64,000 nt of DNA, from assembly GCA_000004695.1 (NCBI GenBank), contig CM000151.3, positions 1,536,001-1,600,000 on the forward strand, in the 5' to 3' direction. Positions within the stretch are counted from its first letter, which is position 1; each line of letters opens with the position of its first letter. This document shows positions 6,001 through 51,851 of the stretch, piece after piece. The notes beneath the pieces were generated by a model. That model saw only the letters and a list, made by a program, of their open reading frames with translations. It was not told the DNA's origin and did no database searches. The translations under genes were made by a program, and so were the position numbers. The stretch is from Dictyostelium discoideum (Eukaryota).

Positions 6001-8549
6001 ATGCAGTAGAGTATATTAGTGAAAGAAAACATATTGGTAAAATCGTTGTAAATTTTCAAACTACAAAAGATTTAGTACAAGATATAATTATTAAATCAAA
6101 TAATTCATTTGAAAATAATTATCTATTCCAATCACCTCAATACAATTTAAATAATACAACATTTGGTAATACTATATTAATTACTGGTCAAAAAGGATTA
6201 TCATTAACAATTATTAAATGGATATTATATTATTATCCAAATCAAGATAATAATACCAATAATAGTTTTATTAAAGATATAATAGTTTTATCAAAATCAA
6301 CAATTAATTATGAATTAGAAATTGAAATTGGAAGAGCAAGAAAAAAAGGATTAAAAACAAATATTCATTTTAAACAAGTTGATATTTCAAACAAAAATCA
6401 ATTATTCGAATCAATTGATGAATTATATAAATCAAATAAAGAATTAAAACCAATTGAAACTATATTCCATAATGCATTCGTACCAGTACAATCAGAACCT
6501 GAAGATATTGATTTACAACAATTAGTTGATTCACATGGTGCAAAAATAATTGGCGCAACCAATTTATATGATTATATTACATCAAAAGCTATGGTATTAA
6601 AGAACTATATAATTTCAGCATCAGCAACTTCTATAATGGGTTCAACAAGACAATGTGGTTATTGTTGTGCAAATGCAGTAATTGATTCATTCTCGAAATA
6701 TTTAAGAAGAAAAGGAATTCAATGTTTTTCACTAAAATATTCTCCAATTGAACAAAGTGGATATGTTGCAAGAAATGAATCTGTTGAAAAGCTATTAGCT
6801 TCAACTGGTTTAAATTCAATTTCAATTGGTACAGTTTTAGGTTCAATCGATTTAGCATTACAAAATCAAGATCAACTTAATAATAAATGTATTGTAGGTT
6901 TTGATTTCAAATTATTTTCTAAAAGACCAAATCATCTTCGATATATATTAGATTTCTACACCAATCAATATCAATCAAATAATGATGAATCTAATGATAA
7001 TGACGAATTTTCAATCAAAGATCAAATTTTAAACAAATTTTCAGAGTTATTACAAATTGAAGTTTCAAAGATTAATTTAGATATTAAAATGGTCGACTAT
7101 GGATTAGATTCATTAACAGTTGTAAATTTAAAAACATACTTGGATCAACAATTTTCATTTGGTCCAAATGTTTTATCAATTTCTCAAATTCAAAAAATTA
7201 CAATTGATCAATTATTGAATATTGTAAAAAATGAATTAAATAAAAAATCGAATTATAAAAATAATAATAATAATAAGAAATCAAATCAAAATAAACACAA
7301 ACAAATAATAGGTTCAACAATTAAGTGGGAAAATGAAATAAAATTAGATGATTCAATAATAGTAGATTTAAATGAAGATCAAATTAAAAATTATGAAAAC
7401 AATATTAATAATGAAAATGAAAATATTGTATTATTAACAGATGCAACCAGTTTTATTGGTATTTATTTATTATATGATTTAATAATTTTAGGAAATTATA
7501 AAAATGTTTATTGTTTATTAAATAATAACAATTCAAAAGAAGAAGGATTTAAAACAATCATTCAACTATTAAAAGAATACAAATTATTTGATAAATTAAC
7601 AAATGATCAAATTAATAAAATTGAAATTGTATGTGGTCACTACTCAAAAGAACAGTTTGGAATATCAAATGAAGATTATAATAACTTATCAAATCAAGTT
7701 AATATTATTTTAAATTGTGCAACTGATAGAAATTTAAATAAAAAGTATGAAGAATTTAATGAACAATTAGAAGGTATAAACCAATTTGTTAAATTTTCAT
7801 TCAATAATAAAATTAAGAAATTATTTCATTTATCAGCAATCGGGGTATACCAAGAAGATCCAAATACTGATGATGATTATTATTTACCACCATTGGAATC
7901 AATTGATAATATTAAATCTGGATATTTACAAAATAGAATTGTTCAAGAATATCGTTTAAGAAATGCAAATAAAATTCATGGATTACCAATAATGATAATT
8001 AGATTACCATTTTTATTCTCTGATGATAGTACAGGTATTGGTAGAGATAATGATGTAATTATGCTATTATTACAATCATGTTATATAATGAATACATGGC
8101 CATCAGATTTAGAGAATCAATTATTAAATTTAATACCTGTAACATTTGCAAGCAAATCAATATCATCAATTATTTCATCATTAAATGTTTGGAATCAATG
8201 CAAATCATTATCACCAATTAATAATTTAATTACATTTAATTTAGTTACAAATCAAATTTGTTTAGGTACCATTATGAATCAATTATCAAATGATCTTGGT
8301 TGGCGTAAAATTTCAACATTACAATTCATTAAAAAATTAGATATTTATGATAATGAATCTTGTAAAACATTATCATCTTTTATAAATAAAAAACTTTTCT
8401 TTAGTTTCTTATCTGTTGATGGTCAGTATAATTTTAATCAAGTTGTCAAAAATGAATTAATTTCAAATAATATATTTAATGGTTATAATGTTGATAAAAA
8501 TTCAATAATCAAACATTTAAGTTATACTTTTAAAAAGAAAATATTTTAA
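44..8549 (+). CDS. Type I iterative polyketide synthase, 3' part (5' end lies upstream of the window). Contains a 1-bp frameshift near 987, so it may be a pseudogene or carry a sequencing error
   Basis: KS C-terminal half (ELHGTGTPTGDPIE, GSIKSNIGHLEPASG) reads in frame 1 up to ~987, then continues in frame 0 to the stop at 8547-8549. Approximate domain positions: AT GHSIGEISAAYCSG ~1437; DH HAAKGKALFPGCGY ~2460; C-MeT LEIGCGIGLLSE ~3816; ER LIHSGTGGIGLAAIEIL ~5460; KR ILITGQKGLSL ~6175; ACP DYGLDSLTV ~7087; terminal NAD(P)-reductase (R) domain LLTDATSFIGIYLL ~7430-8540. The frameshift is a missing T in gattttatt(t)ataatc relative to copy 2 (11011-11030). Confidence 0.75.
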
Positions 8550-11500
8550 ATTAAATATTAATAAATATTATTAAAAAATAAAAAACAAACTTTAAAATGT
8601 TTAAAATATTATCCGTATCTTCATTTTTTTTTTTTTTTTGAATCAGATAATGCAATTGTTGCTTCTCCTTAAGATATTTGTTCTCATTTTATTTAAGAGT
8701 TTATAATTCGATAGGCCTTAATTTTTATACATCCTTAAGATGCTGTTTTTTTTTTTTTTGTCTTTAATTTATACATAATAAATTAAAAAAAAAAAAATTA
8801 AAAAAAATAATATATTCGAACTACACTGTTATCAGTCTAAAATAATCCAATTTCTAAACACAAAATATCATTTTGTGTGTGAGATTTTAAATAGATTTTT
8901 TTTTGGGTCGAAATGATAATAGTTTTTTTAAAAAAAAGGTGTTAAAAAAAAAGAATCCGTTTTTTTTGAAAAGATTTTTTTTTTTTAAAAAAAGGTGGTG
9001 TAAAAAAAAAAAGAATTTTTTATTTGTTTTATTGTAATATAATCTTTTTTGCAAATAAGATTTTTTTTTTTAAGAAAAAAAAAAAAGATTTTTCTGGTGA
9101 GGCAAACGTCAAAAAAATTACTTTCACTTTAATTATTAGTTAGTTTTTTTTTTTATATCTGCAAATTAAATAATCTTTTATCAAGTAACACTAATAATTG
9201 CACTTTTTTTAAATCTTCAAAAAAAAATTTTAATCTCTTTCAAAGATTAATAAACAATCACTTTTTATTGTAAGTGTCTTTTGAAAAAAAAAAAAAAAAA
9301 AAAAAAAGAAAAATCTATTTTCATTTAATAAAAAAATAAAATAATTTATTTTCATTCTATTAAACAAAAAAACTATTCTATTTTAAATATTATTATTAAT
9401 TAAATTTAATATTTATTTTTAATTAATTATTTGTTTTTTTTTTTTTCCCATATATATAATGGATATTAAATTAAAAAATAATGATAAATATAGTGACAGA
9501 GATGTTGCGATAATTGGTATTGGCTTTAGATTACCAGGTAATAGTAATCGTGGAACAGAATTATGGCAAAATTTATTGAATGGATTTGATGGTATCGTTG
9601 AAACATCTGATAGATGGTCAGATTCTTTTAAAGATTTAGGTGAAATTCATTGTAAAGATGCTGGTTTAGTAGAGTTGGAGGATTGGGAGTCCTTTGATCC
9701 AATTCATTTTGGTATTAATCCTGCCGAAGCTAAACAAATTGATCCACAACAAAAACTATTATTAAAATCAACATGGGAAGCTTTTGAAGATGCTGGAATT
9801 GATCCATTATCATTACGTGGTACATATACAAGTGTATTCGTTGGTGCATCTGCTTCTGATTACTCAACATCGATGCCAGAGAATTATGAAAAGCCAAACT
9901 TTAATGTTTTCAATTCAACAACTGGTAGTATTGCAAATAGAATATCATATTGTTTTGATTTTCGAGGTCCATCATTAACTGTCGATACTGCATGTTCAAG
10001 TAAGTATTTCTTTTTTTTTTTTCTTTTTTAAAAAGGAAAGGGTCTAATATTTATATATATATATATTTTTTAAAAAAAAAGGTTCATTAAATGCATGTTT
10101 ATTAGGTTACAAATCAATTATTAATGGAGAGTGTAATTATTCAATCGTATCAGGTTGTAATTTTATATTCAATCCCCATATTAGTAGAGGATTTACAACT
10201 ATTAATATCATTGGTAAAAGTGGTAGATGTAAAGCATTCGATGAATCAGCTGATGGTTTTGTACGTGCCGAAGGTGTTGCAGTGTTAATATTAAAAAAGT
10301 TATCAATGGCAATCAATGATGGTGATCAAATTTATTCAATCATTCGTGGTGGTAATTCAAATGTTGATGGTACATTAAATAAAGGTAATTTTATGAAACC
10401 ATCAAAATCTGCACAATCAAATAATATCATTAAAGCATTTGAATCAACAAATGGATCCATTCAACCATCCGATATTGATTTCTTTGAATTACATGGTACT
10501 GGTACACCAACAGGCGATCCGATTGAAGTAGAAGCAGTTTCAGATATTTTTAAGTCTGTCAAATTAAGTTCAAATCCATTATTAATTGGCTCAATTAAAT
10601 CAAATATTGGTCATTTAGAACCAGCATCGGGTGTTGCATCATTAATGAAAATTTGTTTAATGTTTAAACATCGTCAGTTTATTAAAAACATTCATTTTAA
10701 TAAACCAAATGGTGACATTAAATTTGAAGAATGGAAAGTTAAAGTAAGTACAGAGAATACACCATTCCCACAAAACAAACAAGTATCAATTGCAATCAAT
10801 AGTTTTGGTATTACTGGTTCAAATGTTTGTTTGCTATTAAGTGAATATACAAACCAATCTAATGACGCACTTACCATAACATCATCAACATCACCAACAT
10901 TATCAAATGATTTTAAATATTTAATACCAATTTCAGCAAATTCCAAAAAATCATTAGACGATATTAAAGAAGAGTTAATTAATAATTCATCAGAATTATC
11001 AAAGAATTTACCATTTAAAGATTTTATTTATAATCAAATTTATTCAAAATCAACAACATTAATCCAAAGATCAGTTATTTTTGCAAATGATTGGAATGAT
11101 TTAAATTCAAATACTCAAATCATATCAACCAAAGGTAACATGTCTGGCAATTTTGTAAAATCTGCCGAGGATGGTGGTAACCAAAATGATCAAAGCAATG
11201 ATAATATTCTTGTTTTTGTATTTTGTGGCCAAGGACCTCAATGGAATAAAATGGGCAATGAGCTTTATAAAAACTCACCAAAATTCAGAGAAACAATGGA
11301 TTTAATCGATTCAATTTTTGAAAAACATTTTAAATACTCAATTCTATCAAAATTAAGATCAATCCAAGATGATGATAAAATTAGCATTAATGAACCAACA
11401 ATGGCACAATCATCGATTTTAATGATTCAAATATCATTATTTGAATTATATAAACATTGGGGTATTATACCAACAATCATTATAGGTCATTCACTTGGTG

Positions 11501-12023
11501 AAATATCAGCAGCCTATTGTTCAGGTATGATTAACTTAGAAACAGCATGTGAAATCATTTACAAAAGAAGTACACTTCAAAAACAAACAGTTGGATTAGG
11601 TAAAATGTTAGCAATTGGATTAAATGAAAAACAATTTAAAGATCAATTTTCATCATCATCAAATGTTGAAATCGTTTGTTACAATTCACCATCATCAATT
11701 GTTGTTTGTGGTGATGGAATTGAATTAGAAAAAATATCAAATTCATTAAAAGAAAAACAAATATTTTCATTTTTATTAGAATCACCATCACCATACCATT
11801 CATCAAAACAAGAATTAATTAAAGATCAAGTTTTAGAATCAACCAATAATATTAAATCAAACAAACCAAACATTCCAATATTTAGCACAGTAACAGGTGA
11901 ATTATTCAAACTTGGCCAAGACAATCAATTTAATTCTCAATACATATATGAAAATACTAGAAATGCAGTATTATTTGAAAAAGCAATTGAAAACATTTTC
12001 AAATACATTGAAACAAATAATCT

Positions 12024-12159
12024 TGGTAAAAATATTCAATTGGTAAAAATATTCAATTGGTAAAAATATTCAATTGGTAAAAATATTCAATTGGTAAAAA
12101 TATTCAATTGGTAAAAATATTCAATTGGTAAAAATATTCAATTGGTAAAAATATTCAAT
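12024..12159. repeat. Perfect 8x tandem repeat of the 17-bp unit tggtaaaaatattcaat at the PKS copy-2 rearrangement breakpoint
   Basis: Units begin at 12024, 12041, 12058, 12075, 12092, 12109, 12126 and 12143 with no mismatches. The unit is single-copy in copy 1 (1984-2000, cttggtaaaaatattcaat). It introduces the stop that ends ORF 10282..12063. Confidence 0.9.
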
Positions 12160-12160
12160 A

Positions 12161-12690
12161 TTGTAAATTTACCATGTGCAGATAATATCCATTTACCAGT
12201 TTTATTATCTTTATAATTGAATACAACTCTATATTCATTTTTACCACTTGAATAAATGTTTGTGGTTAAACATTGTTTAATTCCTTCGATTAATTGTAAT
12301 GGTGATTTAAATTCCATACTATGAATTGTTAAATCTTGGTTTGGGAATGCTCTTAAAACATTATCAATATAACCACAACCTGGAAATAATGCTTTACCTT
12401 TTGCTGCGTGACCTTTTAAAAATCTAAATGGTTCTTCTGCAATATCAATATATGATGTATATGATATAAATGGTGATTGTTCATTACGAATACCAAGTTG
12501 ATTAGTTGAAAAACCATTCTTTTTATAATTAAATACCGATTGTGATTGAGTGAAATAAATTCCATCATCAAATTTATAATGTGGTAAATAATAAGATGCT
12601 TTTTTAAATTGAATAGTTTCATTTCTGCTTGGTTCATTTAATTGACTTTTAAAATTAACATTATTAAAATGACAATTTTCATATATGTAT
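12161..12690 (-). other. Inverted fragment of the PKS DH-domain region embedded in copy 2
   Basis: attgtaaatttaccatgtgcagataatatccatttaccagttttattatc is the reverse complement of copy-1 2671-2720. The fragment end ttgacttttaaaattaacattattaaaa is the reverse complement of copy-1 ~2207-2234. Confidence 0.8.
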
Positions 12691-15600
12691 TGACAATTAT
12701 ATACTCCTTATATAAAACAAAATGATATTATTAAAGATATTATAACAAATTCAGTTAAACCAATTTTAAATGAAAAAATTAAATTTAGAATATTAGAGAT
12801 TGGTTGTGGTATTGGTTTATTATCAGAAATCATTATCAATCAAATAAATTTATTATTTAAAGAGAATCCATTATCAGAAATTAGTATCGAATTCACTTAT
12901 TCAGATTCAACATTTATACAAGCTGTTAAAGATAAAATTCAACAAATGATTCCAGAATCAACATTATTATCATTTAAAACTTTATTTAAAACTATTAATA
13001 TAAATGAAGATTTATTAGATCAAAATTTCAAACCATCTTATTATGATATTATTATTGTTAATGGTGTTAATTATTTAAATAAAGATAAACAACTCAATTC
13101 AACAATCAATAATATCAATCAAATTTTAATTTCAAATGGTTATTTAATTATAATGGATACACATTATAAATCAAAAGTAGTCGATAAACAAATTGAATTA
13201 TATGAACAATGGTTATCATTTAATTTCAAATCTAACAACAACAACAATAATGATAATTTAACAAATGAACAATGGAATAATTTATTAGTTAATAAATTAA
13301 AATTTAAAGAATTCATATCAACATCATATGAACCATATTTATTATTTGTTCAAAAACCAACGATTGATGAAATCGTATTATCAAGTCAACAAAAGATATC
13401 AAAGTTAATATCATCATATGATCAAATTATTAAATTTGATTCAAATTTAGGTCACAAAGATAATATAATTTCAGATATATTAAATGATGGTAGTTTTGGT
13501 GTTGTAAGAATTACATCAATTGAGCAATTTGAAAAACATGTTGAAACAAATCCATTGACAGATAACTCGTTAATTCTTTTCTTTAGTTCAGTTAACGATT
13601 TAAATGAAATTAATTTTAATCAAGTTACATTTGAATATATTAAAATCAATCAATATTTATTAAAGACCAAATGTAAATGTAAACATATATTAGTTTCAAA
13701 GAATTCTCAAACATCTGCTGACGATGAAAATACATGTTCGAATTATTTAGGTACTTCAGTAATTGGTGCATTTAAATACTTTTCAGAATATATTGATTTA
13801 AATATATATTCAATCGATTATGGTTCAGATATTTATGAAATTAATTTAAATGATTTAATACTTCATAATGAATTAACAAATCCTTTAAAACATATACAAA
13901 GAGAATATATTATAAGAGATAATAAAATATACTATGAACATTTAAAATTAGAATCAAATATTAAAATGAAATATAAATCAAATTCATTCATTAAAGATAC
14001 AAACAAATTAATGACAAAAGTTGAACCTCAAACATTAGAATTTAAATTATTAGCAAAAAGAGAATTAAAAGAAGATGAAGTCGAAGTTAGGGTTTTAGCA
14101 AGTGGTATTAATTTTAAAGACAATTTAACTTATCGTGGTTTAGTACCAAAAGAAGCAACAAATGAAATAGGTGATTCAACTGATCCACAAATTGGTTGGG
14201 AATGTTCAGGTATTATCACTAGAATTGGTAAAAAAGTAAATAAATTTAAAATTGGTGATTCAGTATTAGGTACTTGTTTTCATTCAGTAGCATCACATGT
14301 AATTACAAATCAAGATAGATTTGTATTAAAACCAGATTGTTTATCATATGTCGAAGCTGCTTCAATTCCATTGGTTTATATCACATCATATTATTCATTA
14401 TTGGTTCAAGGTAATTTGGATTTTGAGGGTGATGAAGAGACTGTTTTAATTCATTCAGGTACAGGTGGTATAGGTTTAGCAGCAATTGAAATATTAAAAG
14501 CAATTGGATTTAAATCATTATTATTCGTTACAGTTGGTTCAAAAGAAAAAGAACAATTTTTAAGAGATAGATATGGTTCATTTATAACTGAAATTTATTC
14601 AACTAGAAATACTGACTATGTTCAAGATATAAAAAAGAAAATTAAAGAAATTAAAAAAGGCAAAGGCAAATCACTCACTCAATATGGTACCTTATCATAT
14701 GGAGTTGATTTAATTTTAAATACTTTATCAATTGAATTTATGGAATCAAATTTTTTACTTTTAAATCAAGGTGGTCGTATCGTTGATTTATCAATCACCC
14801 ATTTATCAACAACTGAAACAACTGATTATAATAAATTTAAATATTTCATTGGTTATTCAACTGTTGAAGTTATGACACCAAGTTTCTCAAAAGTTAAAAA
14901 AACACTTCAAATTGTTGTCAATATGATTAAAGATGGAAAATTAAAATTATTACCAATTATTGAATATTCAGTTAGTGAAATTAAAAATGCAGTAGAGTAT
15001 ATTAGTGAAAGAAAACATATTGGTAAAATCGTTGTAAATTTTCAAACTACTGAAAATGTAGTACAAGATTCAATTATTAAATTAAATAATTCATTTGAAA
15101 ATAATTATCTATTCCAATCACCTCAATACAATTTAAATAATACAACATTTGGTAATACTATATTAATTACTGGTCAAAAAGGATTATCATTAACAATTAT
15201 TAAATGGATATTATATTATTATCCAAATCAAGATAATAATACCAATAATAGTTTTATTAAAGATATAATAGTTTTATCAAAATCAACAATTAATTATGAA
15301 TTAGAAATTGAAATTGGAAGAGCAAGAAAAAAAGGATTAAAAACAAATATTCATTTTAAACAAGTTGATATTTCAAACAAAAATCAATTATTCGAATCAA
15401 TTGATGAATTATATAAATCAAATAAAGAATTAAAACCAATTGAAACTATATTCCATAATGCATTCGTACCAGTACAATCAGAACCTGAAGATATTGATTT
15501 ACAACAAATTATTGATTCAAATAGTGCAAAAACAATTGGTGCAATCAATTTATATGATTATATTAGTTCAAAAGCTATGGTATTAAAGAATTATATAATT

Positions 15601-18600
15601 TCATCATCAATGGCATCTGTAATGGGTTCAACAAGACAATGTGGTTATTGTTGTGCAAATGCAGTAATTGATTCATTCTCGAAATATTTAAGAAGAAAAG
15701 GAATTCAATGTTTTTCATTAAAATATTCAATAATTGAACAAAGTGGATATGTCGCAAGAAATGAATCTGTTGAAAAGCTATTTACAACCACTGGTTTAAA
15801 TACTATTTCAATCGGTACAGTTTTAGGTTCAATCGATTTAGCATTACAAAATCAAGATCAACTTAATAATAAATGTATTGTAGGCTTTGATTTTCAACTA
15901 GTTTCTAAAAGATCAAATCATCTTCAATATAAATTAGATTTCTATACCAATCAATATCAATCAAATAATGATGAATCTAATGATAATGATGAATTTTCAA
16001 TCAAAGATCAAATTTTAAATAAATTTTCAGAGTTATTACAAATTGAAGTTTCAAAGATTAATTTAGATATTAAAATGGTCGATTATGGATTAGATTCATT
16101 AACAGTTGTAAATTTAAAAACATACTTGGATCAACAATTTGTAATCGGACCAAATGTTTTATCAATTTCTCAAATTCAAAAAATTACAATTAATCAGTTA
16201 ATTAATTTTGTAAAAAATGAATTAAATAAAAAATCAAATTATAAAAATAATAATAATAATTTAAATAAAAATAAGAAATCAAATCAAAATAAACAGAAAC
16301 AAATAATAGGTTCAACAATTAATTGGGAAAATGAAATAAAATTAGATGATTCAATAATAGGTTTAAATGGAAATCAAATAATTTTTAATAATGAAAATGA
16401 AAATATTGTATTATTAACAGATGCAACTAGTTTTATTGGTATTTATTTATTAAATGATTTAATAATTTTAGGAAATTATAAAAAAGTTTATTGTTTAATA
16501 AATAATAACAATTCAAAAGAAGAAGGATTTAAAACAATCATTCAACTATTAAAAGAATACAAATTATTTGATAAATTAACAAATGATCAAATTAATAGAA
16601 TTGAAATTGTATGTGGTCACTACTCAAAAGAACAATTTGGAATATCAAATGAAGACTATAATAACTTATCAAATCAAGTTAATATTATTTTAAATTGTAC
16701 AACTGATAGAAATTTAAATAAAAAGTATGAAGAATTTAATGAACAATTAGAAGGTATAAACCAATTTGTTAAATTTTCATTAAAAAATAAAATTAAGAAA
16801 TTAATTCATTTATCAGCAATTGGAGTTTATCAAGAAGATCCAAATACTGATGATGATTATTATTTACCACCATTGGAATCAATTGATAATATTAAATCTG
16901 GATATTTACAAAATAGAATTGTTCAAGAATATCGTTTAAGAAATGCAAATAAAATTCATGGATTACCAATAATGATAATAAGATTACCATTTTTATTCTC
17001 TGATAATAACACAGGTATTGGTAGAGATAATGATATTGTTATGCTATTATTACAATCTTGTTATCTAATGAATACATGGCCATCGGAATTAGAGAATCAA
17101 TTTTTAAATTTAGTACCGGTAACATTTGCGAGCAAATCGATATCATCAATAACCATATCTTCAAATGTTTGGAATCAATGTAAATCATTATCACCAATTA
17201 ATAATTTAATTACATTTAATTTAATTGTTGATCATATTTCTTTTGGTACCATTATGAACCAATTATCAAATGATCTTGGTTGGCGTAAAATTTCAACATT
17301 ACAATTCATTAAAAAATTAGATATTTATGATAATGAATCTTGTAAAACATTATCATCATTCATAAAGAATCAAAATTTCTTTAATAGTTTATCTATTGAT
17401 GGTCAGTATAATTTTAATCAAGCTATCAAAAATGAATTAATTTCAAAAAATATATTTAATGGTTATAATGTTGATAAAAATTCAATAATCAAACATTTAA
17501 GTTATACTTTTAAAAAGAAAATATTATAAACTAAATATAAAAAAATTAAAAAAACACAGTCAAAGGTTTGTGTTTTTTTATTTTTTATTAATTAAAATCA
17601 AGTTTTTTTTTTTTTTTTTTTTTCGCCATTTTTAAAATTTTTTTTTTCTTTCTTTTTTTTATTTATTTTCTTATTCTTTTAAATAGACACTGGAGAAGTT
17701 TTGTTTTTTTTTTGATGAATAAAAAAAAAAAAAATAAAAAATTTAAAAAAAAAAAACCATCATTGAAACTAAGGGTAAAAGTATTACTTTTAAATTCAAA
17801 ATAAAAAATAAAAATAATACCAAATAAAATAAAACCACAACCAAAAATAAAAAAAAAAAAAATTAAAAATTAATTTAATGAAATTTTGTAAAATTAAATT
17901 CGATAAATTAATTTTTAATTTTATATCTAATTCTAAACTTTAGATTTTTACCAAACCAGCATAACTCAATTTTATAAAATTCTTTATACTTTTTTTTTTT
18001 TTAAAAACTTCTCAAATATATTTTTTTTTTTATAATACCCATACCACTTCAGCACCTTGTGAATATATTTTTTTTTTCTAATAATATAAAAAAAATTTTA
18101 ACACATCCAAATTGATCAGTTTTCTCAAAATGGCTAAATTTTTGATCAAAAAAAAAAAAAAAAAAGCATTGGAGTATAGGTTGTTTGGTTACCCCTAAGT
18201 AAATTGGGTGAAAAAAAAAAAGTAGTTTGGTATTACTGAACACACAATGTTGTGTTTACATATAAATATATAATAAAAAAATAATAATTAAAAAAAAAAA
18301 TAATTAAAAAAAAAATAATTAAAAAAAAAATAATTAAAAAAAATTATATAATTGAAAAAAAAAAAAAAAAAGAACACCACACCCAAAATAATTTTCTTTC
18401 TTTTAAAAAAAAAAATTAATTATAAACAATAAATAAACATTAAGAGAAAGAAAATTAAAAAAAGAAAATAAATATCGCATCAGGGAAATCACCGATGCAA
18501 TTTTCGTCATCAAAACAATCAAAAAATAAATTTTTTAAAAAATTCACAAAAAAAAAAAATTTCAAAAACCAAAATTTTTTTTTTTTTTTTTTTTTTTTTA

Positions 18601-19449: not shown

Positions 19450-21501
19450 TTAAATATTTTTTAAGTTATCATAAAGTGAATTAATAAAATTACCAGAACA
19501 TAATTTTAAATTATTATTTTTAATTAAATTTTCAAAACACAATTGATTTTCAATTATATTATAATTATTATAATATGTGTAAATTGTTGTTGATTTTGGT
19601 AATGGAAATTTAAATTTACACATAGCACTAAATAAAATTAAATGATTAATTGATGGTTTTAACCAATCACTTGATATTGTACCTTGAAAAGTTGGACCTA
19701 ATGATAAACAAGTTAAAGAATCTGGTAAATTTGGTAGATTTAATTGATTTAATGGTTGATTTAATTTTAAAGAACGTAATGAATTTGGAAATATTTTAAA
19801 ATCTATAACTTCTTGAATACCATAACCTAATTCAATATTTGTTAATGTATTTGGAAATATTACTCTACTAATTGGATGCTTAAAATGGTAATCAAATATT
19901 ATTGATTTTAAATTTTTCATATTCATAAATACTTTTGGTGTTAATTTTTCATTTTTATAACTTGAAAATTTAATTGATACAATTGATGTTGAAAAGTGAT
20001 CACATTCAAATTGATCTTTAAAATGACTCGTAATTGTTAACGATCTTAATGAGTTACATTTTATTAAACATTGATTATATGGACCTTCATATTGTGTTAA
20101 ATTTAATAATTGATTTGAAAATAGTGATGTTAAAGATTGTTCTTCTGATAAATGTATTTTTGAATGTTGAGGTTGTAATTCTGGTGAAACCAATTTTGGT
20201 TCTATAATTTTCAATGATTTAATTGAAGTTGGTAAATCATCATATTGTAATAAAAGTTTTTTAGTATATAATAAAACGTATGTTAATTCTAACGATTCAA
20301 GATTCTTTAAAAATGGTTTTAAATTTCTGAGTGATTGACTACAACTAATTGATAAATGTTTTAAAGTTGTCGGTATTGATTTAATGGGGGATTTAAAACA
20401 ATGTTCACCAAAAATTAAAGTTTCCAATGATGGCGGTAACTCATCAACTTCTAATTGATGATTGAATTTACAATCAATTGAAAATATTAATTCTTTTAAT
20501 GAGTTTGGAAGTGTAAATTTTTTAAATTTCTTATCAAATTCTCTACCAATATAAAGCTTTTCTAATTTATTTGTATTTAAAAAACAATAGTTATTTAAAG
20601 ATTTATTAAATGATTCACCAAATTTTAAAACTTTTAATTCTTTTGGTAATACATTCTTTCCAATTTCACAATTAAAATGATAACCAAATTCTAAAAAAGT
20701 AATTGATGATGGTAAACAACCTTCATTAATCTCTGTATTAAATGAATCACCAAATGTTAAACTTGTTAAACTATTTGGTAATAAACCCCTAAATAACTTT
20801 TCATTATAAAAATCTGCAAATAACAATTCTTTTAAATTATTTGGTAATTTTTTAATTTCACATTTATGATAATTACTATATCCACTTTTATTCTTTTGAC
20901 CAAAATCTAAATATCTTAATTTATTTGATGATTCATTAATACTACCATTACCACTACCATTGCCACTACCATTACCATTACCATTGCCACTACCATTACC
21001 ACTACCATTGCCACTACAATTACCACTACCACCTTCTAAAGATTGAATAAATGGTATAGTTTTAAAAGATAATTGATCATTTAAAATTAAAGATTTTATA
21101 TTTGAATGAATTGAATCATTTGAAAATGATGAATAAAATGAACCAACAAATTCTAGTGATGTTACTGAACGAGGTATGAACCCAGATTTAAAAATATTTG
21201 CTGATGGTCGATGTGAACTATTTTCAATTTCAACTGTATCAATATTCTCTGGTAATGATTCTAATATTGATAATACTCTTTGAAGATTATTTATATTTTT
21301 TTTACCACCAATAAAAAAATAAACCCTTTTCAAATACATTTTATATGGATAGTTTAACCAATATTGATATTCTTTATCTGTATTTATTTTGAAATCAACC
21401 CTATTAAAATTATTTAAAAAAATCATTTCCTTAAATATAAGATTTCTAATATATACATTTCTCCATAGTAAAAAAAATAAAAAATCATTATTATTTTCCA
21501 T
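19450..21501 (-). CDS. FNIP-repeat-containing protein (683 aa) with an internal (GSGN)n low-complexity stretch
   Basis: Many ~22-residue repeats of the form LPxSLxxLxFGxxFNxxI (for example LPNSLTSLTFGDSFNTEINEGCLPSSITFLEFGYHFNCEIGKNVLP), typical of the Dictyostelium FNIP repeat family. Single uninterrupted ORF on the minus strand. Confidence 0.8.
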   Translation of the reverse strand: MENNNDFLFFLLWRNVYIRNLIFKEMIFLNNFNRVDFKINTDKEYQYWLNYPYKMYLKRVYFFIGGKKNINNLQRVLSILESLPENIDTVEIENSSHRPSANIFKSGFIPRSVTSLEFVGSFYSSFSNDSIHSNIKSLILNDQLSFKTIPFIQSLEGGSGNCSGNGSGNGSGNGNGNGSGNGSGNGSINESSNKLRYLDFGQKNKSGYSNYHKCEIKKLPNNLKELLFADFYNEKLFRGLLPNSLTSLTFGDSFNTEINEGCLPSSITFLEFGYHFNCEIGKNVLPKELKVLKFGESFNKSLNNYCFLNTNKLEKLYIGREFDKKFKKFTLPNSLKELIFSIDCKFNHQLEVDELPPSLETLIFGEHCFKSPIKSIPTTLKHLSISCSQSLRNLKPFLKNLESLELTYVLLYTKKLLLQYDDLPTSIKSLKIIEPKLVSPELQPQHSKIHLSEEQSLTSLFSNQLLNLTQYEGPYNQCLIKCNSLRSLTITSHFKDQFECDHFSTSIVSIKFSSYKNEKLTPKVFMNMKNLKSIIFDYHFKHPISRVIFPNTLTNIELGYGIQEVIDFKIFPNSLRSLKLNQPLNQLNLPNLPDSLTCLSLGPTFQGTISSDWLKPSINHLILFSAMCKFKFPLPKSTTIYTYYNNYNIIENQLCFENLIKNNNLKLCSGNFINSLYDNLKNI

Positions 21502-21877
21502 AAATTTTTAGTTTTTTAAAATTTATTGTTAGAAAAAAAAAAAAAAAAAAAAAAGTATAAAAAATTGATTATAAAAATTTATTTTTAGAAAAAAAAAAAA
21601 AATGAAAAATAAAAAAAATAAAAAAAAAAACCAAAATAAAAATAAAAATAAAAATTAAAAAAGAGGTGGTTTTTTTACTTAAAAAATTAATAACGACGGT
21701 TACAAACTTGGTTTGTTTCAGATTTTTTTTTTTTTTTTTAGTTTTATTTTTATTTGTTGATTTATTTTTAGATATTTTTGTTTTTTATTTACTTAAAATT
21801 TTTTGACTTTGTATAAACCAGATATTTTTATTATTATTTTACAAATCAAAAAAAAAAATTTCTTCTTTTTTTTAACC

Positions 21878-23973
21878 CTATAAAATTTCGGTTAAAAAAA
21901 AAAAGATAAAAAAAAACAATTGGATAAATAAAAATAAAAAATATAAAAATAAAAAAAAAAATATTATTATTAATGTGCAATTATTATTAATATTTATTTT
22001 AATTTCTTTTTTTTTATCATAAATTGAATTAATAAAATTATCAGAGCATATTTTTAAATTATTATTTTCAATTAAATTTTCAAAATAAAATTGATTTTCA
22101 ATGACATTATAATTATTAAAAGATATGTAAATTGTTGTTGATTTTGGTAATGGAAATTGAAATTTACAATCAACACACAATAAAATTAAATGATTAATTG
22201 ATGGTTTTAACCAATCACTTGATATTGTACCTTTGAAATTTGAACCTAATGATAAACAAGTTAAAGAATCTGGTAGATTTGGTAACGTTAATTGATTAAA
22301 TTCAACCAATTTTAAAGAACGTAATGAATTTGGAAATATTTTAAAATCAATGATTTCTTTAATACCAAAACCAAATTCAATATTTGTTAATGTATTTGGA
22401 AATATTATCCCACCAATTTGTTGAATATAATAATGACTACTGAATATCACTGATTATAAATTCTTCATTTTTGTAAAAACCTTGGGGGTTAAATGTTCAA
22501 AGGCAAGGCTTAAAAATTCGATTGATTTAATTAATGACGAAAAGTGATCACATTGATAATGATTTGTGAAATGATTTGTTATCTTTAATGATCTTAATGA
22601 ATTTGATTTTTTTAAAAACAAGTTATATGGACCTTCATAATTTTTTAATTTTAATAATTTATTTGAAAATAGTGAGCTTAAAGATTGATCTTCCAACTGC
22701 ACCTGTTCTTGATTTGAATATGGATGCGACTGTGTTGAGACTAATCTCGGTTCAATTATTTAATGAAAATCAGTATCATTCAATATCCTTCTAACCAAAG
22801 GCACTAAAAATGATGTTAATTCTAATTTTTTAAGATTCTTTAAAAATGGTGATACATTCTCAATTGATTGACTACAATTTATTGATAAATATTTTAAAGA
22901 TATTGGCAAAGACTCAATTTCCGATTTAAAATATCGCTCACCAATAATTAAAGTCTTTAACGATGGAGGTAACACACCAACTTCCAATGGGTGATTGAAT
23001 TTACAGCCAATTGAAAATACCAACTCTTTTAATGATTTTGGGAATGTAAATTCGATAAACTCACCTTGATATTCTCTACCAAGATAAAGTTTCTTCAATT
23101 TATTTCTATTATAAAAACATTGTCTTGTACTTAAAGATTTATTGAATAGTTCACCAAATTTTAATATTTTTAATCTCTTTGGTAATACATTCTTCCCAAT
23201 TTCACAATTAAAATGGTATCCAAATTCTAAATAAGTGATTGACGATGGTAAACAACCTTCACCAATCTCTGTATTAAATGAATCACCAAATGTTAAACTT
23301 GTTAAACTTTTTGGTAGAAATACTTTACCTATCTCTTGATTGAAAAAGTTTGGTAATAACAATACTTTTAAATTTTGTGGTAACCTTTTAACTTCATATA
23401 TACTTTTTTTAAAACTATCTATACTTTTATTCTTTTTACCAAAATCCAAATACTGTAAATGACTACCACCACTACTACTACCACTACAATTGCCACCCTC
23501 TAGACATTCAATAAATGGTATAGTTTTAAAGATAATTGATCATTTAGAATTAAAGATTTTAAATTTGAATGAATTGAATTTTTTGAAAATGGTGAACTAA
23601 ATGAACCAATTAATTCTAGTGATGTTACTGAACGAGGTATGAAGCCAGGATTAAATATATTACATATAGGTATTATTGAATTTGTTTCAATTTCAACTGT
23701 ATCAATATTCTCTGGTAATGATAATAATGTCAATATCAATCTTTGAAGATCAAAAATTCTAAGACCTTGAAAACTAATAAAGAACCTGACCCTTTTCAAA
23801 TAAATTTTATATTTATAATCTAACCAATATTGATATTCTTCATTTGTATTTATTTTGAAATTAACTTTTCTAAATATACTAAATAATTTCAATTCATTGA
23901 TTATAACTTTTCTTAAAACTATATTTCTCCAAATTGAAAAAAATAATTTATCATTATAATTTTCTAAATTCAT
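21878..23973 (-). pseudogene. Decayed tandem paralogue of the FNIP-repeat gene
   Basis: N-terminus (23973..23500: MNLENYNDKLFFSIWRNIVLRKVI...FKINTNEEYQYWLDYKYKIYLKRV) parallels the intact gene. Homology continues through ORFs 22760..23449, 22454..22702 and 21878..22450 in three different frames. A 1-bp deletion at ~23540 (ttttaaag versus ttttaaaag) truncates the first ORF, and the C-terminal stop is lost. Confidence 0.7.
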
Positions 23974-24307: not shown

Positions 24308-24472
24308 TTATTGATGTAATATTGTAGTTTTGTAAGATGGTGGAATTGCAGAAGATTCAGAGGAAGACTCTTCATCAGATTCACTATTTGATGATGAGTA
24401 AGAAGATGAGGAAGAATAATTATTATATTCATCATGTTTTAATATTAATGGTGAGTTAATATTATTATGGTA

Positions 24473-24511
<39 letters not shown>

Positions 24512-25020
24512 ATTATTTTTATTTGATTTTACAAGATGATTAAATGAAGCAGATGTTAATAATGAATATTGAGATGAATATCTATTATTTTGAGGTTGCT
24601 GTTGTTGTGGATCACTTAATAATAAAGCTCTCTTCTTTTTCATTTTTCTTAACCTAAACATCATTAAAACTGTTGGTAAAATTTCAGTCATAAAGAAATA
24701 AGCCAATTCAAATTCCCAACCCAAATTAAATGATGTTGTACCAGACTGATTTGGATCATTAATCGATTCACGAATACTGTACAATGTGATAATCGATCTA
24801 ATACAAAAACAAACTGTACAAATACTACCAACAACTGCTGCTCTAATCGCCTCTGGTGGTGATTGTAATATACCTTTTCTTTTTCTTCCATTATTATTAA
24901 TTAATAAATGATGACCTTTATTATTATTACCACTACTACTTATACCACCACTTATATTTATTTTATTATTATTATTAATTTCATTATTATTATTACCATT
25001 CGGTATTATTATATTATTAC

Positions 25021-25078
<58 letters not shown>

Positions 25079-25852
25079 ATTATTACTATTTATAATTTTA
25101 TTATGTTTATCTAATTTTTTAAATGATACAAATAATAAGATACCATAAATTAAGAAACCAAATCCTGCAACTAAAAACAATCCACTAATTATACCTTCAA
25201 TGATTTGATCTAATAATAATCTTCTATCTTCAGTTTTACCCCATATTGTTAAGGTTACAATCCAACCAACCAAAGCTAAAACCATTATCGTTGTGAATAC
25301 CACTACTCTTGGTATCCAAATATTCCAAAAATCTTTTGCCGTTGTAAATGGTTGAGAGAATCTTGAATATAATTCCATCCAAAATAATAATAAACAACCA
25401 TATCCTACAAACAATAACATACTTGATACCTCATACCAAATAAGAACAATATCATAGTTATTAATCTTTTGTGATGAAAAAAAGAATCCACTTCTTACTA
25501 AATAAATTTAAAAAAGAAAATAAAAAAATAATAAAAAAAAAAGTTAATAAATTGTTATTATTTTTATTTATTTCTTTATTTATTTCTTTATTTTTGAAAT
25601 ATATTTACCTAACATTGTAACAGCAATGATAAAATGAAAAATAAGTTTTGGTTTTAAATTTTTTGCACCATTTCTACTATATATGAGTATTCTAATTAAT
25701 TGGAATAATGCCCATAAGAATAGTAATCCATCTATAATTCCTAAAATATAATATAAATTTATATTGTATCCATTAATATCATCATCACTGTTACCGCTAC
25801 CACTACCACTACTACTCTTAAGTTTTAACCTAAGAAATGATTCAACCAACAT
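24308..25852 (-). CDS. Seven-transmembrane membrane protein with a long poly-Asn loop; 2 exons: complement(join(24308..25497,25609..25852))
   Basis: Exon 1 ends ...AVTMLG with donor GTAAAT (plus-strand 25608-25603), acceptor tttatttag, phase 1, and the codon is completed as GTA in exon 2. Seven hydrophobic segments (LYYILGIIDGLLFLWALFQLI, LIFHFIIAVTMLG..., IVLIWYEVSSMLLFVGYGCLLLF, VVVFTTIMVLALVGWIVTLTIW, IISGLFLVAGFGFLIYGILLFV, AAVVGSICTVCFCIRSIITLYSI, LAYFFMTEILPTVLMMF). An (AAT/ATT)n-encoded Asn-rich insert lies between TM5 and TM6. Confidence 0.6.
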
Positions 25853-26719: not shown

Positions 26720-27332
26720 ATGGCCTCAAATCAAGAACTCGTTCAAATCGCCACAAACTTTTTATTAAATGCACCACCATGCGAATTTATGGAAGTTGTT
26801 TCAGGTAAGAATTTAATTTAATTTATTTGGAATCAACAATGAACAACGAAAACATATTCGTCTCATAGATAGGATTTTTTTTTTTTTTTTATATTTATTA
26901 GGTGACAGTGTGTGGTGTGTTTAGTTTTTTTTTTTTTTTTCCTTACAATCAAATTCTTAATTCTTAAATATTAAAATAATTTTATTTTATTTATTTTTGT
27001 TTTAAAAACAGATGTTCGTGCTCTCCTTCCAAGTGAATCATTATTAAATGCCTCAGCTGGTTCAACATTCAGAGAATACAATACATCACAAATGGTTAGT
27101 GTACAAACATCAAAAGGTTCAGCTTTAATTACCAAAGAAGGTGAAATTAGCAACAACGAATATTTAGATCCAAAGAATAAACAAGTTATTACTTATGATC
27201 ATATTAAACAAGTATGTTTTTAATTATTTTAGGGAAAAAAAAAAAAAAAAACATACCATACCATACTAACATAAAATTTATAATTTATTCAATTTTTACC
27301 AAAACAAAACTTTTCAATTAATGATCAATTTA

Positions 27333-27375
<43 letters not shown>

Positions 27376-27802
27376 CAAATCTTTGTTTTTGTTAATAATT
27401 TAATAGGAAGTCACTGGTGAACGTTCAGCATCAGGTGAAATTGAACAAGATATTGAACAATACAGAGCAGCATTTGATGAAGAAGCAACCAAATATTGTA
27501 ATGAATATTATCCAAATGGTGTAAGTGCCGTTTATGGTACCAAAGTATCAGAAGGTATTAAAATTACCGTTTGTATCTCTACCTGCATATACAAACCAAA
27601 CGCTTTCTACTCTGGTAGATGGAGATCAGTTTGGACCTGTACTTTCAAACCAGGTAGTGGTAATGTAACCTCAAATGGTAAAGTTCAAGTTAATGTTCAT
27701 TACTTTGAAGATGGTAATGTTCAATTAAACACTGTCACTCAAAAACAAACTACTTCACCATCTGCTGTAAGTTTTATATTCATATATATATATTTTTGAA
27801 TT

Positions 27803-27833
<31 letters not shown>

Positions 27834-28080
27834 CAAATAGTTACTAATTAATTTTTATATTTATTTTTTAAAACTTTAGGATGCACAATCAACTGCAGTC
27901 AATGCATTTAAAGCAATTGGTAAAGCTGAACTTAACCTCCACACCGCACTTGATAACAATTACTCCACTATGGGTGATACCACATTCAAAGCCCTTAGAC
28001 GTGCTCTTCCAATCAATCGTACCAAAATCAACTGGCAAAAAGTCAAAAACTTCAAAATTGCCAATGAACTCAATAAATAA
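26720..28080 (+). CDS. acpB: F-actin capping protein alpha subunit (Cap34); join(26720..26804,27012..27211,27407..27766,27880..28080)
   Basis: Protein MASNQELVQIATNFLLNAPPCEFMEVVS / DVRALLPSES...DHIKQ / EVTGERSASGEIEQD...YSGRWRSVWTCTFKPGSGNVTSNGKVQVNVHYFEDGNVQLNTV...SPSA / DAQSTAVNAFK...DTTFKALRRALPINRTKINWQKVKNFKIANELNK. Collinear with CapZ-alpha (APPGEF, GRWRSxW, HYYEDGNVQL, TFKALRRQLPVTRTKIDW). All introns are GTAAGA/GTATGT/GTAAGT...AG with consistent phases. Confidence 0.85.
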
Positions 28081-34382: not shown

Positions 34383-34397
34383 CAAAAAAATTTAAAT

Positions 34398-34594
34398 TCA
34401 TTTAATAGATTTTCTGTTATTACTTTTTAAATTATCTTAAAAATTATTTTATAATATAAAACTTTTTATATCAAAAAAAAAAAAAAAAAAAAAATTTATT
34501 TCTTTTAATTTCAATTATAAGATAATTAAAAATTCATTTAATAGATTCTGTGTTATTATCCTTTTAAATAATCTTAAAAAATATTTTATAACAC

Positions 34595-34632
<38 letters not shown>

Positions 34633-34690
34633 AATTTCTTTTAATTTCAATTATAAAATAATTAAAAATTCAAATAATAATTATTTCATT
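34398..34690. repeat. ~135-bp tandem direct repeat, 2+ units, upstream of the Prx-like gene
   Basis: Units ttcatttaatagatt(t)tctgttatta...atcttaaaaa(t)tattttataa...(A)n...tttcttttaatttcaattataa(g/a)ataattaaaaa at 34398-34540 and 34541-34670, then a partial third start. Confidence 0.75.
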
Positions 34691-34827: not shown

Positions 34828-35463
34828 ATGACACACACTAAATTAAAAGGTAATATATTAAAAATATTATTTTTGAAATTATTATTATTTTAATTAACTT
34901 TTATTTTATTATATTTTAATTTATTTTTTATTATTTTAGAAGGAGACGTTTCACCAAACTTTAATGCACCAGACCAAAATGGAATTCGTTTAACCTTGGA
35001 TGATAGTAAATTCCAGAATAAAACTATAATAATTTTCTTTTATCCAAAGAATGAAAGTAAATCTGGTGCAAATATGGCACGTGAATTTAGAGATAACTAT
35101 CAAATTCTAAAAACATTACAATGTGAAGTAATTGGAGTTAATTATGATGATCACCAAAAAAACCAACAATTTGCCCAATTTAATGATATTCCATTTTCAA
35201 TGTTATCTGATACTGATGGAGCAATTGCAAGAAGATTTGGAGTTCACAAAGATTTGTTAATTTTTCCTTCAAAAACAACATTTGTTATTAACAAAGAACA
35301 TAGAATTGATACTATTTATTCGAATCCAATTAAAGTTGAATCACATCTAAAACAAGCATTAAAAGCTGTTGAAAAAATGAAAAATTCACCACAAAATTCT
35401 ACCAATCATACTGTAGCTTCTAATACAACAACAAACCCTGCTGTTAGTAATCCAATTTCATAA
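34828..35463 (+). CDS. Peroxiredoxin-Q/BCP-like thioredoxin-fold protein lacking the peroxidatic cysteine; join(34828..34849,34940..35463)
   Basis: MTHTKLK | (E)GDVSPNFNAPDQNGIRLTLDDSKFQNKTIIIFFYPKNESKSGANMAREFRDNYQILKTLQCEVIGVNYDDHQKNQQFAQFNDIPFSMLSDTDGAIARRFGV aligns with BCP (G.xAPDFxLxDQxGxxVxLxDxxGKxVVLYFYPKDFTPGCTxExxxFRD...VxGVSxDxxxSxxxFxxKxxLxFxLLSDxxxxVxxxYGV). The FTPGC motif is replaced by ESKSGA. Donor GTAATA, acceptor ttttag. An alternative acceptor 3 nt downstream is also in frame. Confidence 0.7.
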
Positions 35464-35509: not shown

Positions 35510-35554
<45 letters not shown>

Positions 35555-36221
35555 AACAAAAAAAAAAATTCTTCAAAATAAATATTTTTATTTTTATTAT
35601 TATTTATTTTGATTGCAGTAACAATGTAATAATATTTATTCTTTACAAAAAAAAAAAAAAAAAATAAAAAAAAAATTAAAAAAAAAGTTGAAAAAAAAAA
35701 AAAAAAAAAAGGATTTGGTTTTTTTTTAGGGATCTAAGTAAACTGGGCGTTCGTGTGTGCAATATATAATTTTAATTTGGAATTCTTTTTTAATTTTTAT
35801 TTTTTTTATTAAAAATTTTAATTAATCTAAATGTATACATTCTTTTTTTTTTTTTTTGTTATTATTTTTTTATTTTTTTTTTTTTTTTTTTTTTTTAATT
35901 TTTTTTTGTTTTTTTTTTTTAATTTAAATAATTAATTAATTTTTAAAACATATCTCAAATAAAAAATAAAAAAAAAAATAAAAATAAAAAAAAAAAAAAA
36001 AGCGCAAACGTCGTCAAAAAATTTAAAAAAAAAAAAAAAAAAAAATCTAGCTTGTTAACAATTAAAAATCAAAAAATCAAAAGAAAAAAAGAGAATAATA
36101 AAAATAATAAAATAAATTTAAAATTTTAATAATAATAAAAATAATAATAATAATATTAAAAAAAAAATCAAAAAAAAAAAAAAAAAAGAGATTACCTGTT
36201 GTTTATTTTCCATTCCCACAA

Positions 36222-46185: not shown

Positions 46186-47479
46186 ATCACTCTTTGTAAT
46201 TTCTCTTTTAACAACATCAATCACTTAAAAAGATATTAATAATTTTTTCTTAAAAATAAATCTTAATCTTCAAAAATTTTTAGTAGTTTGTGGATAAAAC
46301 AAAAATTACTACTTTCAAAACCAAAAAAAAAAAAAAAAAAAAAAAAAGAAATTTCTTTCATTATTATAATTATTTATTTTATTTTTTTAAAGATATATTA
46401 TTATTATTATTATTGTTATTATTATTACCAACAATTGACGGTTTATTTTTATATTTTTTATTTTTTTTATTTTTATTTTTAATTTTTAATGGTTGATAAT
46501 AAAATACTACTATTTTATAAAAACATTTCTATGGCCAAAAAAACCATAACAATGTAATTATGAAATAGTACTAAATATTTTAAGGGAGGTCAAATATGGC
46601 CAACTCTAGCGAGAAAATAAATGTTTAAAGCTAAAAATTCTTCCAAAATTAGACATAACTCAGAGATGGCAGAATCGATAGTAATTTGGTCAATGAATTG
46701 ATCATTCATTTCAAAAAATTCTAAATACCTATTGAAAGAAATAACACAATGTTGGAGAGAGTTTAAGACTGATTTTGATTTTAGTGGTCCAAATTTTATT
46801 TTGGTGAATGGTTCTAGAAAGTGTTCTGGTTGATTTAGTGGGGCTGGTAATTTTCCAATATTATTAATCACTTCTCTTAAATTACTCGATATACGTTTGA
46901 TATTGCACTCGTGTTCTTCGATTACCTGGTCATTTCGTGGTTCATATGGTTCTCCAAGAGGTAATTCTAAATTTGGATTTTCTTGAGATGAAGGGGGCGG
47001 TGGTGGAGGTGGTGGTGGTGGAGCAGAAAGAGAAGGAGGAGTTTCTTGAAATGGCGACAGTGGTGTTAGTGGTAGTGGTACTGGTGGTGGTTGTACTGGT
47101 TGTTGTGGTGGTTTAGGATTTTCTTGAAGTGGTGCGGGTGGTAGAGTCATTAATGATACATGTATCAAAAACTTTGAAAAAATTGGATATTTTTTTGCTA
47201 GGGTCCTATAGATTTCAGTTTTATTTAATAAAGATCTAGTTTGGCCATTTTCGATAGCTTCAAAAATTGGACTTTCACTTGGTTCGTGGTGGAAATTCAT
47301 TTTTAGTTGGGTGAAAAAAAAAAAAATAAAAAATAAAAAAAAAAAAAAAAAAAATTCTAAATGAAAGAATATTAATAATTTTGCGTATGTGTGTATAAAA
47401 AAACAATAAAATCCTTTTCACAAAAAATAAATATGAAAAATAAAACAAAAAAAATTAAAATAGAAAGTGGAAAAAGGTA

Positions 47480-49097: not shown

Positions 49098-49132
49098 TAT
49101 TTTATTATTTTATTTTTTTAATTTTGTTAAAT

Positions 49133-51851
<2,719 letters not shown>

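Follow-up and report, generated by a model that had tools for sequence, protein, structure and literature searches.

What defines a peroxiredoxin is its peroxidatic cysteine (Cp), and a gene that encodes the fold of such an enzyme but not this residue raises the question of whether its product can still be a peroxidase and, if it cannot, why the gene has been kept. Such a gene lies in a stretch of 64,000 nucleotides (nt) of Dictyostelium discoideum (contig CM000151.3, positions 1,536,001 to 1,600,000 of the forward strand), called the window below; all coordinates count from its first letter. Its product, UniProt Q559T9, is a relative of the PrxQ/BCP peroxiredoxins (Prx). Taken together, the results point to Q559T9 being, probably, a pseudo-peroxiredoxin that came from a duplicate of a gene like that of the intact paralogue Q54NG4 (paralogue B), had its active site dismantled, was then held under purifying selection, and would now serve as a non-catalytic binding module.

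The gene lies where the original prediction had placed it (34828-35463), with the ATG at 34828, the stop codon ending at 35463 and one intron, and a single GT..AG splice was the one option at the locus that gave an open frame (Table 1). The spliced product of 181 amino acids is identical to XP_645245.1 / Q559T9 of D. discoideum AX4, which carries the database label "AhpC/TSA family protein" and the automatic UniRef name 'thioredoxin-dependent peroxiredoxin'; no experimental evidence behind the latter name has been found for this protein. Q559T9 is predicted to be cytosolic, its N-terminus being read as one without a signal peptide. About 150 nt 5′ of the start codon there is a 136-bp unit repeated 2.1 times (84% match, 34394..34679) and flanked by T42 and A36 runs, which may represent the duplication of a promoter element or else AT-rich slippage.

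From the profile searches and the predicted structure, we are confident that Q559T9 belongs by homology and fold to the PrxQ/BCP family. The Pfam AhpC-TSA model (PF00578) matches residues 9-131 with 90 bits, where the gathering score is 26 (E 1.4e-25), and the best sequence match in the PDB is Sulfolobus solfataricus Bcp1 (3drn, E 6.5e-24, 34% identity), with Mycobacterium tuberculosis BcpB and yeast Dot5 as the other closest solved relatives. An AlphaFold2 model built from a 126-sequence alignment has a mean predicted local distance difference test score (pLDDT) of 84, with values >90 in the core and <50 in the last ~21 residues, and its top Foldseek matches are 3drn (target-normalised template modelling score 0.89-0.90, root mean square deviation 1.3-1.9 Å, E 1e-14) and M. 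tuberculosis BcpB (5epf). The helix that normally holds Cp in its first turn begins in the model at residue 48 with a pLDDT of ~94, as in a fully folded peroxiredoxin. The same AhpC-TSA domain and fold are thus shared by Q559T9, Bcp1, BcpB and Q54NG4. The best NCBIfam model for Q559T9, the BCP model NF006960, gives 81.8 bits, under its 140-bit equivalog cut-off; since the intact Dictyostelium paralogues likewise fall under the equivalog cut-off, it is not diagnostic here. Similarity at the level of E 1e-25, together with conservation in at least eight independent assemblies, rules out chance.

Many positions of the fold core are also in place (F41, Y42, P43, F57, R58, D59, G73, D77, F85, D98, T121 and H143), and the FYPK, FRD, GxxxD, LSD, TF and His143 positions are common to Q559T9 and the PrxQ/BCP enzymes. 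Of the motifs originally quoted, FFYPK, FRD, EVIGVNYD and LSDTDGAIARRFGV have all been found as described, whereas the first one needs a correction: in AX4 it is GDVSPNF and has Ser in place of the Ala, which D. citrinum and D. dimigraforme do have. The unrelated Ser/Thr/Asn-rich tail that had been noticed at the C-terminus is real and is predicted to be disordered; it has small indels in the D. citrinum and D. dimigraforme orthologues and no counterpart in the two other PrxQ-type proteins of D. discoideum, paralogues A and B.

What has been lost is the catalytic apparatus. We have aligned 145 diverse representatives of the family, taken from a library of 1.84 billion proteins clustered at 50% identity, and the column statistics given here refer to this set. 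The universal PxxxT/SxxC reads P43-KNE-S47-KS-G50 (PxxxSxxG) in Q559T9: the Cp column, which is Cys in 143 of the 145, is occupied by Gly50 (codon GGT, 35065-35067), and Ser47, Lys48 and Ser49 fill the Thr, Pro and Gly columns that precede it. HMMER and MAFFT agree on this, so that the replacement of the FTPGC(T) motif by ESKSGA, and with it the loss of Cp, holds as first described; no alignment puts a Cys at Cp, but the residue in this column is Gly50 and not the Ser or Lys that had been expected. The losses extend beyond those of the original prediction to the resolving Cys, the active-site Arg, the Thr after Cp and the Glu/Gln that the active-site helix normally carries. The resolving Cys (Cp+5), present in 82% of the family as well as in paralogues A and B, is replaced by Arg55 (CGT, 35080-35082), and the catalytic Arg (143 of 144) by Lys119. 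The position after Cp, Thr in 91% of the family, is Ala51, and the helix column that is Glu or Gln in 100% of the family is Met53. Gly50, Ala51, Met53, Arg55 and Lys119, along with a two-residue insertion (DDSKFQNK), the disordered tail of ~25 residues and another intron structure, are what distinguish Q559T9 from the PrxQ/BCP enzymes.

A peroxiredoxin attacks its peroxide with the Cp thiolate as the nucleophile, and Arg and Thr activate this thiolate. Because this thiolate is absent, we infer from the established chemistry that Q559T9 cannot be a thiol peroxidase, nor be recycled by thioredoxin. The Cp and Arg of a peroxiredoxin (Enzyme Commission number, EC 1.11.1.24) and the resolving Cys of an atypical 2-Cys PrxQ are all missing, and the residue analysis contradicts the name thioredoxin-dependent peroxiredoxin, which Q559T9 should probably not carry as an annotation. 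A selenocysteine at Cp has been considered and ruled out, the codon being GGT and there being no in-frame TGA.

One cysteine is left, Cys69 in LQCEV, and the translation and alignments confirm that no other one compensates in the thioredoxin core. It could be proposed that the protein is still a redox protein, with Cys69, or the cysteine of a partner, as a peroxide-reactive or disulfide-exchanging thiol. Cys69 is indeed conserved in all orthologues of the Cys-less clade, and a few family members, such as representative P0022, have Cys in the same column. Against this, the column is otherwise Ala (70%), Val, Ile or Thr, as expected of a buried small hydrophobic residue, and by the topology of the fold Cys69, at the start of strand beta4, would lie far from the pocket, which is at the other end of the beta-alpha-beta unit. 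The activating Arg and Glu/Gln are gone as well, and there is no second Cys with which a disulfide could form. A surviving redox role is thus very improbable.

A missing active site could also be the product of a wrong gene model or assembly, in which a Cys-bearing exon had been hidden or a sequencing error introduced, and this would be conceivable a priori. The former active-site segment sits in the middle of an uninterrupted 524-nt exon that is colinear with its homologues. When the window was searched by tblastn with the intact paralogue, its active-site exon and the canonical TPGC peptide, no other locus was found: paralogue B matches 34945..35388 only, and the parental active-site exon matches the SKSG site alone. 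No upstream or alternative exon bearing a TPGC or SKSC segment is therefore present in the 64 kb, which removes the escape route left open at first. The same substitutions recur in D. citrinum, D. dimigraforme and five assemblies of D. discoideum or D. cf. discoideum, and the codons for Gly50 (GGT), Arg55 (CGT/CGA) and Lys119 (AAA) are identical or synonymous across independent assemblies of the three species. We have rejected an artefact on the grounds of the uninterrupted exon, the tblastn result and the codons recurring in three species, and regard its probability as negligible.

The loss is thus shared by orthologues, but those found to carry it belong to the narrow D. discoideum group and do not extend across the dictyostelids. 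A word-indexed, non-exhaustive search of the annotated proteins of D. firmibasis, D. purpureum, Cavenderia fasciculata and Polysphondylium violaceum brought up no Cys-less protein of this type; this is a weak negative, as paralogue B also went unlisted in that search.

Where the Cys-less copy came from can be read from its relatives. At least three genes of the PrxQ type are present in D. discoideum, and the one studied here will be called C. Paralogue A (~198 amino acids) has an N-terminal hydrophobic (transmembrane) anchor and a TPGC motif and is orthologous to a C. fasciculata protein, whereas paralogue B (Q54NG4, 157 amino acids) is cytosolic and keeps both Cys residues and the Arg (FYPKDDSK[ST]CTNEAC...PGRTTF). 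C has 43-48% identity with B, against 37-41% with everything else, and C and B have in common the rare Ser-Lys-Ser/Thr before Cp (Lys in 5 of the 145 representatives), GVHK[DE]LL and NK[DE]H[KR]I. Judged by these sequences, Q54NG4 is likely the parent of the Cys-less copy. A neighbour-joining tree placed the metagenomic P0022 beside the C clade; the motifs shared specifically with B speak otherwise, and we have taken this placement as long-branch attraction.

The coding sequences suggest that C changed quickly before it settled. Between B and C the number of non-synonymous substitutions per site (dN) is 0.45 and its ratio to the synonymous value (dN/dS, or omega) is 0.2-0.4, against 0.05-0.10 within either clade, and this difference points to a burst of replacement on the C stem. 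The introns differ too: B has one at codon 41 (phase 1) and one at codon 61 (phase 0), and A has a single intron no more than one codon away from the second B site, whereas C has none of the parental introns and one of its own at codon 8, without counterpart in A or B. The two introns of B enclose a 59-nt exon that corresponds almost exactly to the active-site segment (DDSK[ST]CTNEACEFRDKYSSF). The private codon-8 intron would imply that a young gene has gained an intron.

The chromosomal setting gives a rough age. In D. citrinum and D. dimigraforme the gene order is acpA (F-actin capping protein alpha), Prx gene, large kinase gene. We have reconstructed the acpA coding sequence from these two species, and its 90% cluster led to the D. 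firmibasis orthologue; there, the interval between acpA and the kinase gene is a 1,580 bp spacer of 16% GC in which tblastn found no Prx-like sequence. By the synonymous divergence (dS) of acpA, D. firmibasis falls outside the trio of D. discoideum, D. citrinum and D. dimigraforme (0.19-0.21 against 0.13-0.14). The most economical reading that this suggests is a duplication near the base of the trio, possibly by retroposition because the parental introns are missing. The lack of parental introns and the locus empty in the outgroup are what a retrogene would have, but the intron of its own is unlike a simple retrocopy. An A-run of ~53 nt lies ~55 nt past the stop codon (35516-35568); such runs are ubiquitous in DNA of 22.6% GC, the value for the window, and it is uninformative.

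To check whether such a copy is still maintained, we have extracted the coding sequences from four assemblies of the three species and estimated dN/dS by the Nei-Gojobori method (NG86). The values are 0.10 for AX4 and D. citrinum (dS 0.34), 0.088 for AX4 and D. dimigraforme (dS 0.64) and 0.075 for D. citrinum and D. dimigraforme (dS 0.78), within an overall range of 0.075-0.105 at dS 0.31-0.78. Replacements make up 31-33% of the differences against a neutral expectation of ~80% (binomial P <1e-11), and P is still <1e-4 when the expectation is lowered to 60%. Catalytic paralogue B gives 0.04-0.06 in the same species, so that the Cys-less copy is only ~2-fold less constrained. The Cys-less copy is under strong purifying selection and is not a decaying pseudogene; a dN/dS of ~0.1 means that the gene has been retained for some function.

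These numbers bear directly on the view that the gene is a functionless relic, a young duplicate or retrocopy in decay whose open reading frame (ORF) has stayed intact by chance. The loss of the catalytic residues, the restriction to one lineage with an empty syntenic site in D. firmibasis, the absence of the parental introns and the lack of expression data for the gene in the literature would all suit a relic. At least eight assemblies of the three species, however, keep an intact ORF together with its splice sites and intron phase, and the low dN/dS has been kept up over a dS of up to 0.78 with a constraint not far below that of the parent. The intron has been free to diverge while the exons have not: its position and phase are conserved in four assemblies of three species, but its sequence has diverged and its length is 80, 86, 90 or 149 nt. 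We have rejected a relic on the dN/dS result and consider it highly improbable. With the clear homology to an enzyme, the missing essential catalytic residues and retention by selection, Q559T9 fits a pseudoenzyme in these respects. The description of it as a redox-dead Prx paralogue is therefore well supported, since Cp, the resolving Cys and the Arg are all replaced, an intact Q54NG4 is present in the same genome, the loss is shared and selection is purifying.

The constraint is not evenly spread. Residues 38-61, the former active site, have one codon with amino-acid variation and six with synonymous variation; the corresponding counts are 1 and 9 for the C-terminal helix (residues 127-157), 3 and 13 for residues 100-126, which include Lys119, 8 and 11 for the N-terminal hairpin (residues 1-37) and 10 and 11 for residues 62-99. 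It is therefore in the former active-site loop and helix, the hairpin of Lys119 and the C-terminal helix that the protein is most constrained.

Such a pattern might indicate that a new, non-thiol kind of catalysis, for example of a hydrolase or esterase type, has arisen in the remodelled pocket with Ser47, Ser49, Lys119 and His128/His143. The strong constraint on what was the active-site segment and on the Lys119 hairpin, the fixed and specific rather than random nature of the substitutions and the faster replacement on the stem branch, compatible with adaptive remodelling, all agree with this idea, and mammalian Prdx6, which has phospholipase A2 activity on the same fold, offers an analogy in spirit. 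On the other hand, no catalytic motif can be recognised, there is no GxSxG, Pfam and NCBIfam give Prx/redoxin families only, and a binding surface explains the constraint equally well. New catalysis is thus unlikely.

We favour a non-catalytic binding module, which may have arisen as follows. Gene C would have been born by duplication, plausibly through retroposition, at about the time D. firmibasis split off or earlier; a burst of amino-acid replacement would then have dismantled the active site; and purifying selection has acted since, most strongly on the old active-site face. The substitutions would leave this face more open and basic: Gly50 would leave a cavity at the thiolate site, Lys119 would retain a positive charge, Arg55 would add one and Met53 would remove the Glu/Gln. 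Through this remodelled face Q559T9 may bind a partner or small ligand, the candidate roles being those of an adaptor, a decoy or a sensor and not that of an antioxidant enzyme. It might engage thioredoxin or the catalytic paralogue as a decoy or adaptor, or it might bind peroxide or anions. More tentatively, and in our view doubtfully, positive selection on the stem branch could have remodelled a retrocopy-derived pseudo-Prx with a new pocket for a ligand or partner, such as that of a non-consuming peroxide/hydroperoxide sensor or of a thioredoxin/PrxQ decoy, so that the active site would not simply have decayed.

Several points weigh against the account given here. The role as a binding module is pure inference. 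Literature searches by accession and by guessed DDB_G identifiers returned no expression, protein or activity data for Q559T9, and in a microarray paper several genes of the 'AhpC/TSA family' appear under old DDB identifiers, none of which could be mapped to this gene. Only three close species (88-94% identity) carry the gene, which makes the residue-level constraint maps coarse, and the NG86 estimates of dN/dS ignore the extreme AT bias, though the deficit of replacements is ~8-fold. As to the origin, B and C differ by a saturating dS (1.2-2.1), which is not below the divergence of B between D. discoideum and D. firmibasis (1.1), so that C could be older and the empty D. firmibasis site could reflect a loss instead of a later gain. 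That C is possibly a retrocopy is, furthermore, suggested by the absence of introns and by nothing else.

The loss of Cp is not confined to this clade. Two other natural members among the 145 representatives are without it, P0084 (Cys to Ser, 304 amino acids, from a 13-member metagenomic cluster) and P0132 (Cys to Asp, 167 amino acids), and Cp loss therefore recurs sporadically, in ~1% of clusters (2/145). Both of these keep the catalytic Arg, and P0084 also the resolving Cys, whereas the double loss of Cp and Arg is found in the sample of 145 only in the Dictyostelium clade. From their sequences, P0084 and P0132 may be independent pseudo- or neo-functionalised peroxiredoxins of uncultured organisms. 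Our literature search, whose coverage was incomplete and which gives absence of evidence only, found no description of a natural peroxiredoxin without a peroxidatic Cys, engineered mutants being the only Cys-less ones among the hits.

Redox-inactive modules with a thioredoxin fold are well known: the b and b′ domains of PDI, ERp29 and the phosducin-like proteins bind proteins or ligands without redox cysteines. We propose these as the nearest functional analogy, with the fold of the thioredoxin superfamily kept and its redox cysteines gone; they are thioredoxin-like, ancient and widespread and have documented partners, whereas Q559T9 would be a young, lineage-restricted derivative of PrxQ. Within the peroxiredoxins, decameric enzymes of the Prx1/AhpC type, such as the Leishmania mitochondrial mTXNPx, have a Cys-independent chaperone (holdase) activity, and mTXNPx is thus a precedent for a peroxiredoxin scaffold with a physiological function that needs no catalytic cysteines. 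The holdase activity of the Prx1 subfamily depends on decamers or higher oligomers, and because PrxQ/BCP proteins are monomers or A-type dimers, a chaperone role of this kind, which had been offered along with binding for Q559T9, would be less obviously transferable by analogy.

The rest of the window holds genes of other families (Table 1). In D. discoideum, a large gene with calcium-binding-EGF/TIG repeats lies additionally between acpA and the Prx gene, and it is absent from the interval between acpA and the kinase gene in D. citrinum, D. dimigraforme and D. firmibasis; it looks like a species-specific insertion or rearrangement in the intergenic region where the Prx copy also came to lie. 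The order of the FNIP-repeat genes, the THH1 gene and acpA is conserved in D. firmibasis. The two polyketide synthase genes are closely related, and the recurrence of their peptide matches every ~9-10 kb indicates a recent tandem duplication. Of the two poly-proline ORFs, the one scanned gave no Pfam match.

Table 1. Coordinates of the Prx gene, its key residues and the neighbouring features in the window
Feature	Position	Strand	Remarks
Prx gene, exon 1	34828..34849	+	22 nt; ATG at 34828; codons 1-7 (MTHTKLK) and first base of codon 8
Prx gene, intron	34850..34939	+	90 nt, GT..AG, after codon 7, phase 1
Prx gene, exon 2	34940..35463	+	524 nt; whole PrxQ/BCP domain and tail; stop codon 35461-35463
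Former active-site segment, P43-K-N-E-S47-K-S-G50-A-N-M53-A-R55	35044..35082	+	from HMMER and MAFFT alignments and column statistics
Cys69, sole cysteine	35122..35124	+	first residue of strand beta4
Lys119 (AAA)	35272..35274	+	replaces invariant catalytic Arg; PSKTTF instead of PGRTTF
C-terminal tail, Ser/Thr/Asn-rich, ~residues 157-181	35386..35460	+	predicted disordered, pLDDT <50
Two tandem highly-reducing polyketide synthase genes	244..8549, 9459..17529	+	acyltransferase, ER-type dehydrogenase, KR, ACP and C-terminal NAD_binding_4 reductase domain
FNIP-repeat genes	19450..23449	-	
THH1/TOM1-3-domain membrane protein	24308..25420	-	
acpA	26720..28080		
Large calcium-binding-EGF/TIG repeat gene	28626..~32600	-	between acpA and Prx gene in AX4 and a second D. 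discoideum assembly
Two paralogous ORFs, ~240 amino acids	43848..44576, 46590..47300	-	long poly-proline cores; similar N- and C-terminal regions
MgsA/WRNIP1-like AAA+ ATPase	49124..51851	+	two exons

The clade that carries the Cys-less gene is small and the interest of the case moderate. Within these limits, the finding corrects an automatic annotation that would mislead inventories of antioxidant genes, and it provides a dated example of the birth of a pseudoenzyme with the intact parent in the same genome. It also offers a clean system, in a genetically easy model organism, for what the Prx scaffold does without redox chemistry. If a pocket was indeed remodelled by positive selection, the locus would be a natural and tractable case of the Prx fold gaining a non-redox function within a few close Dictyostelium species.

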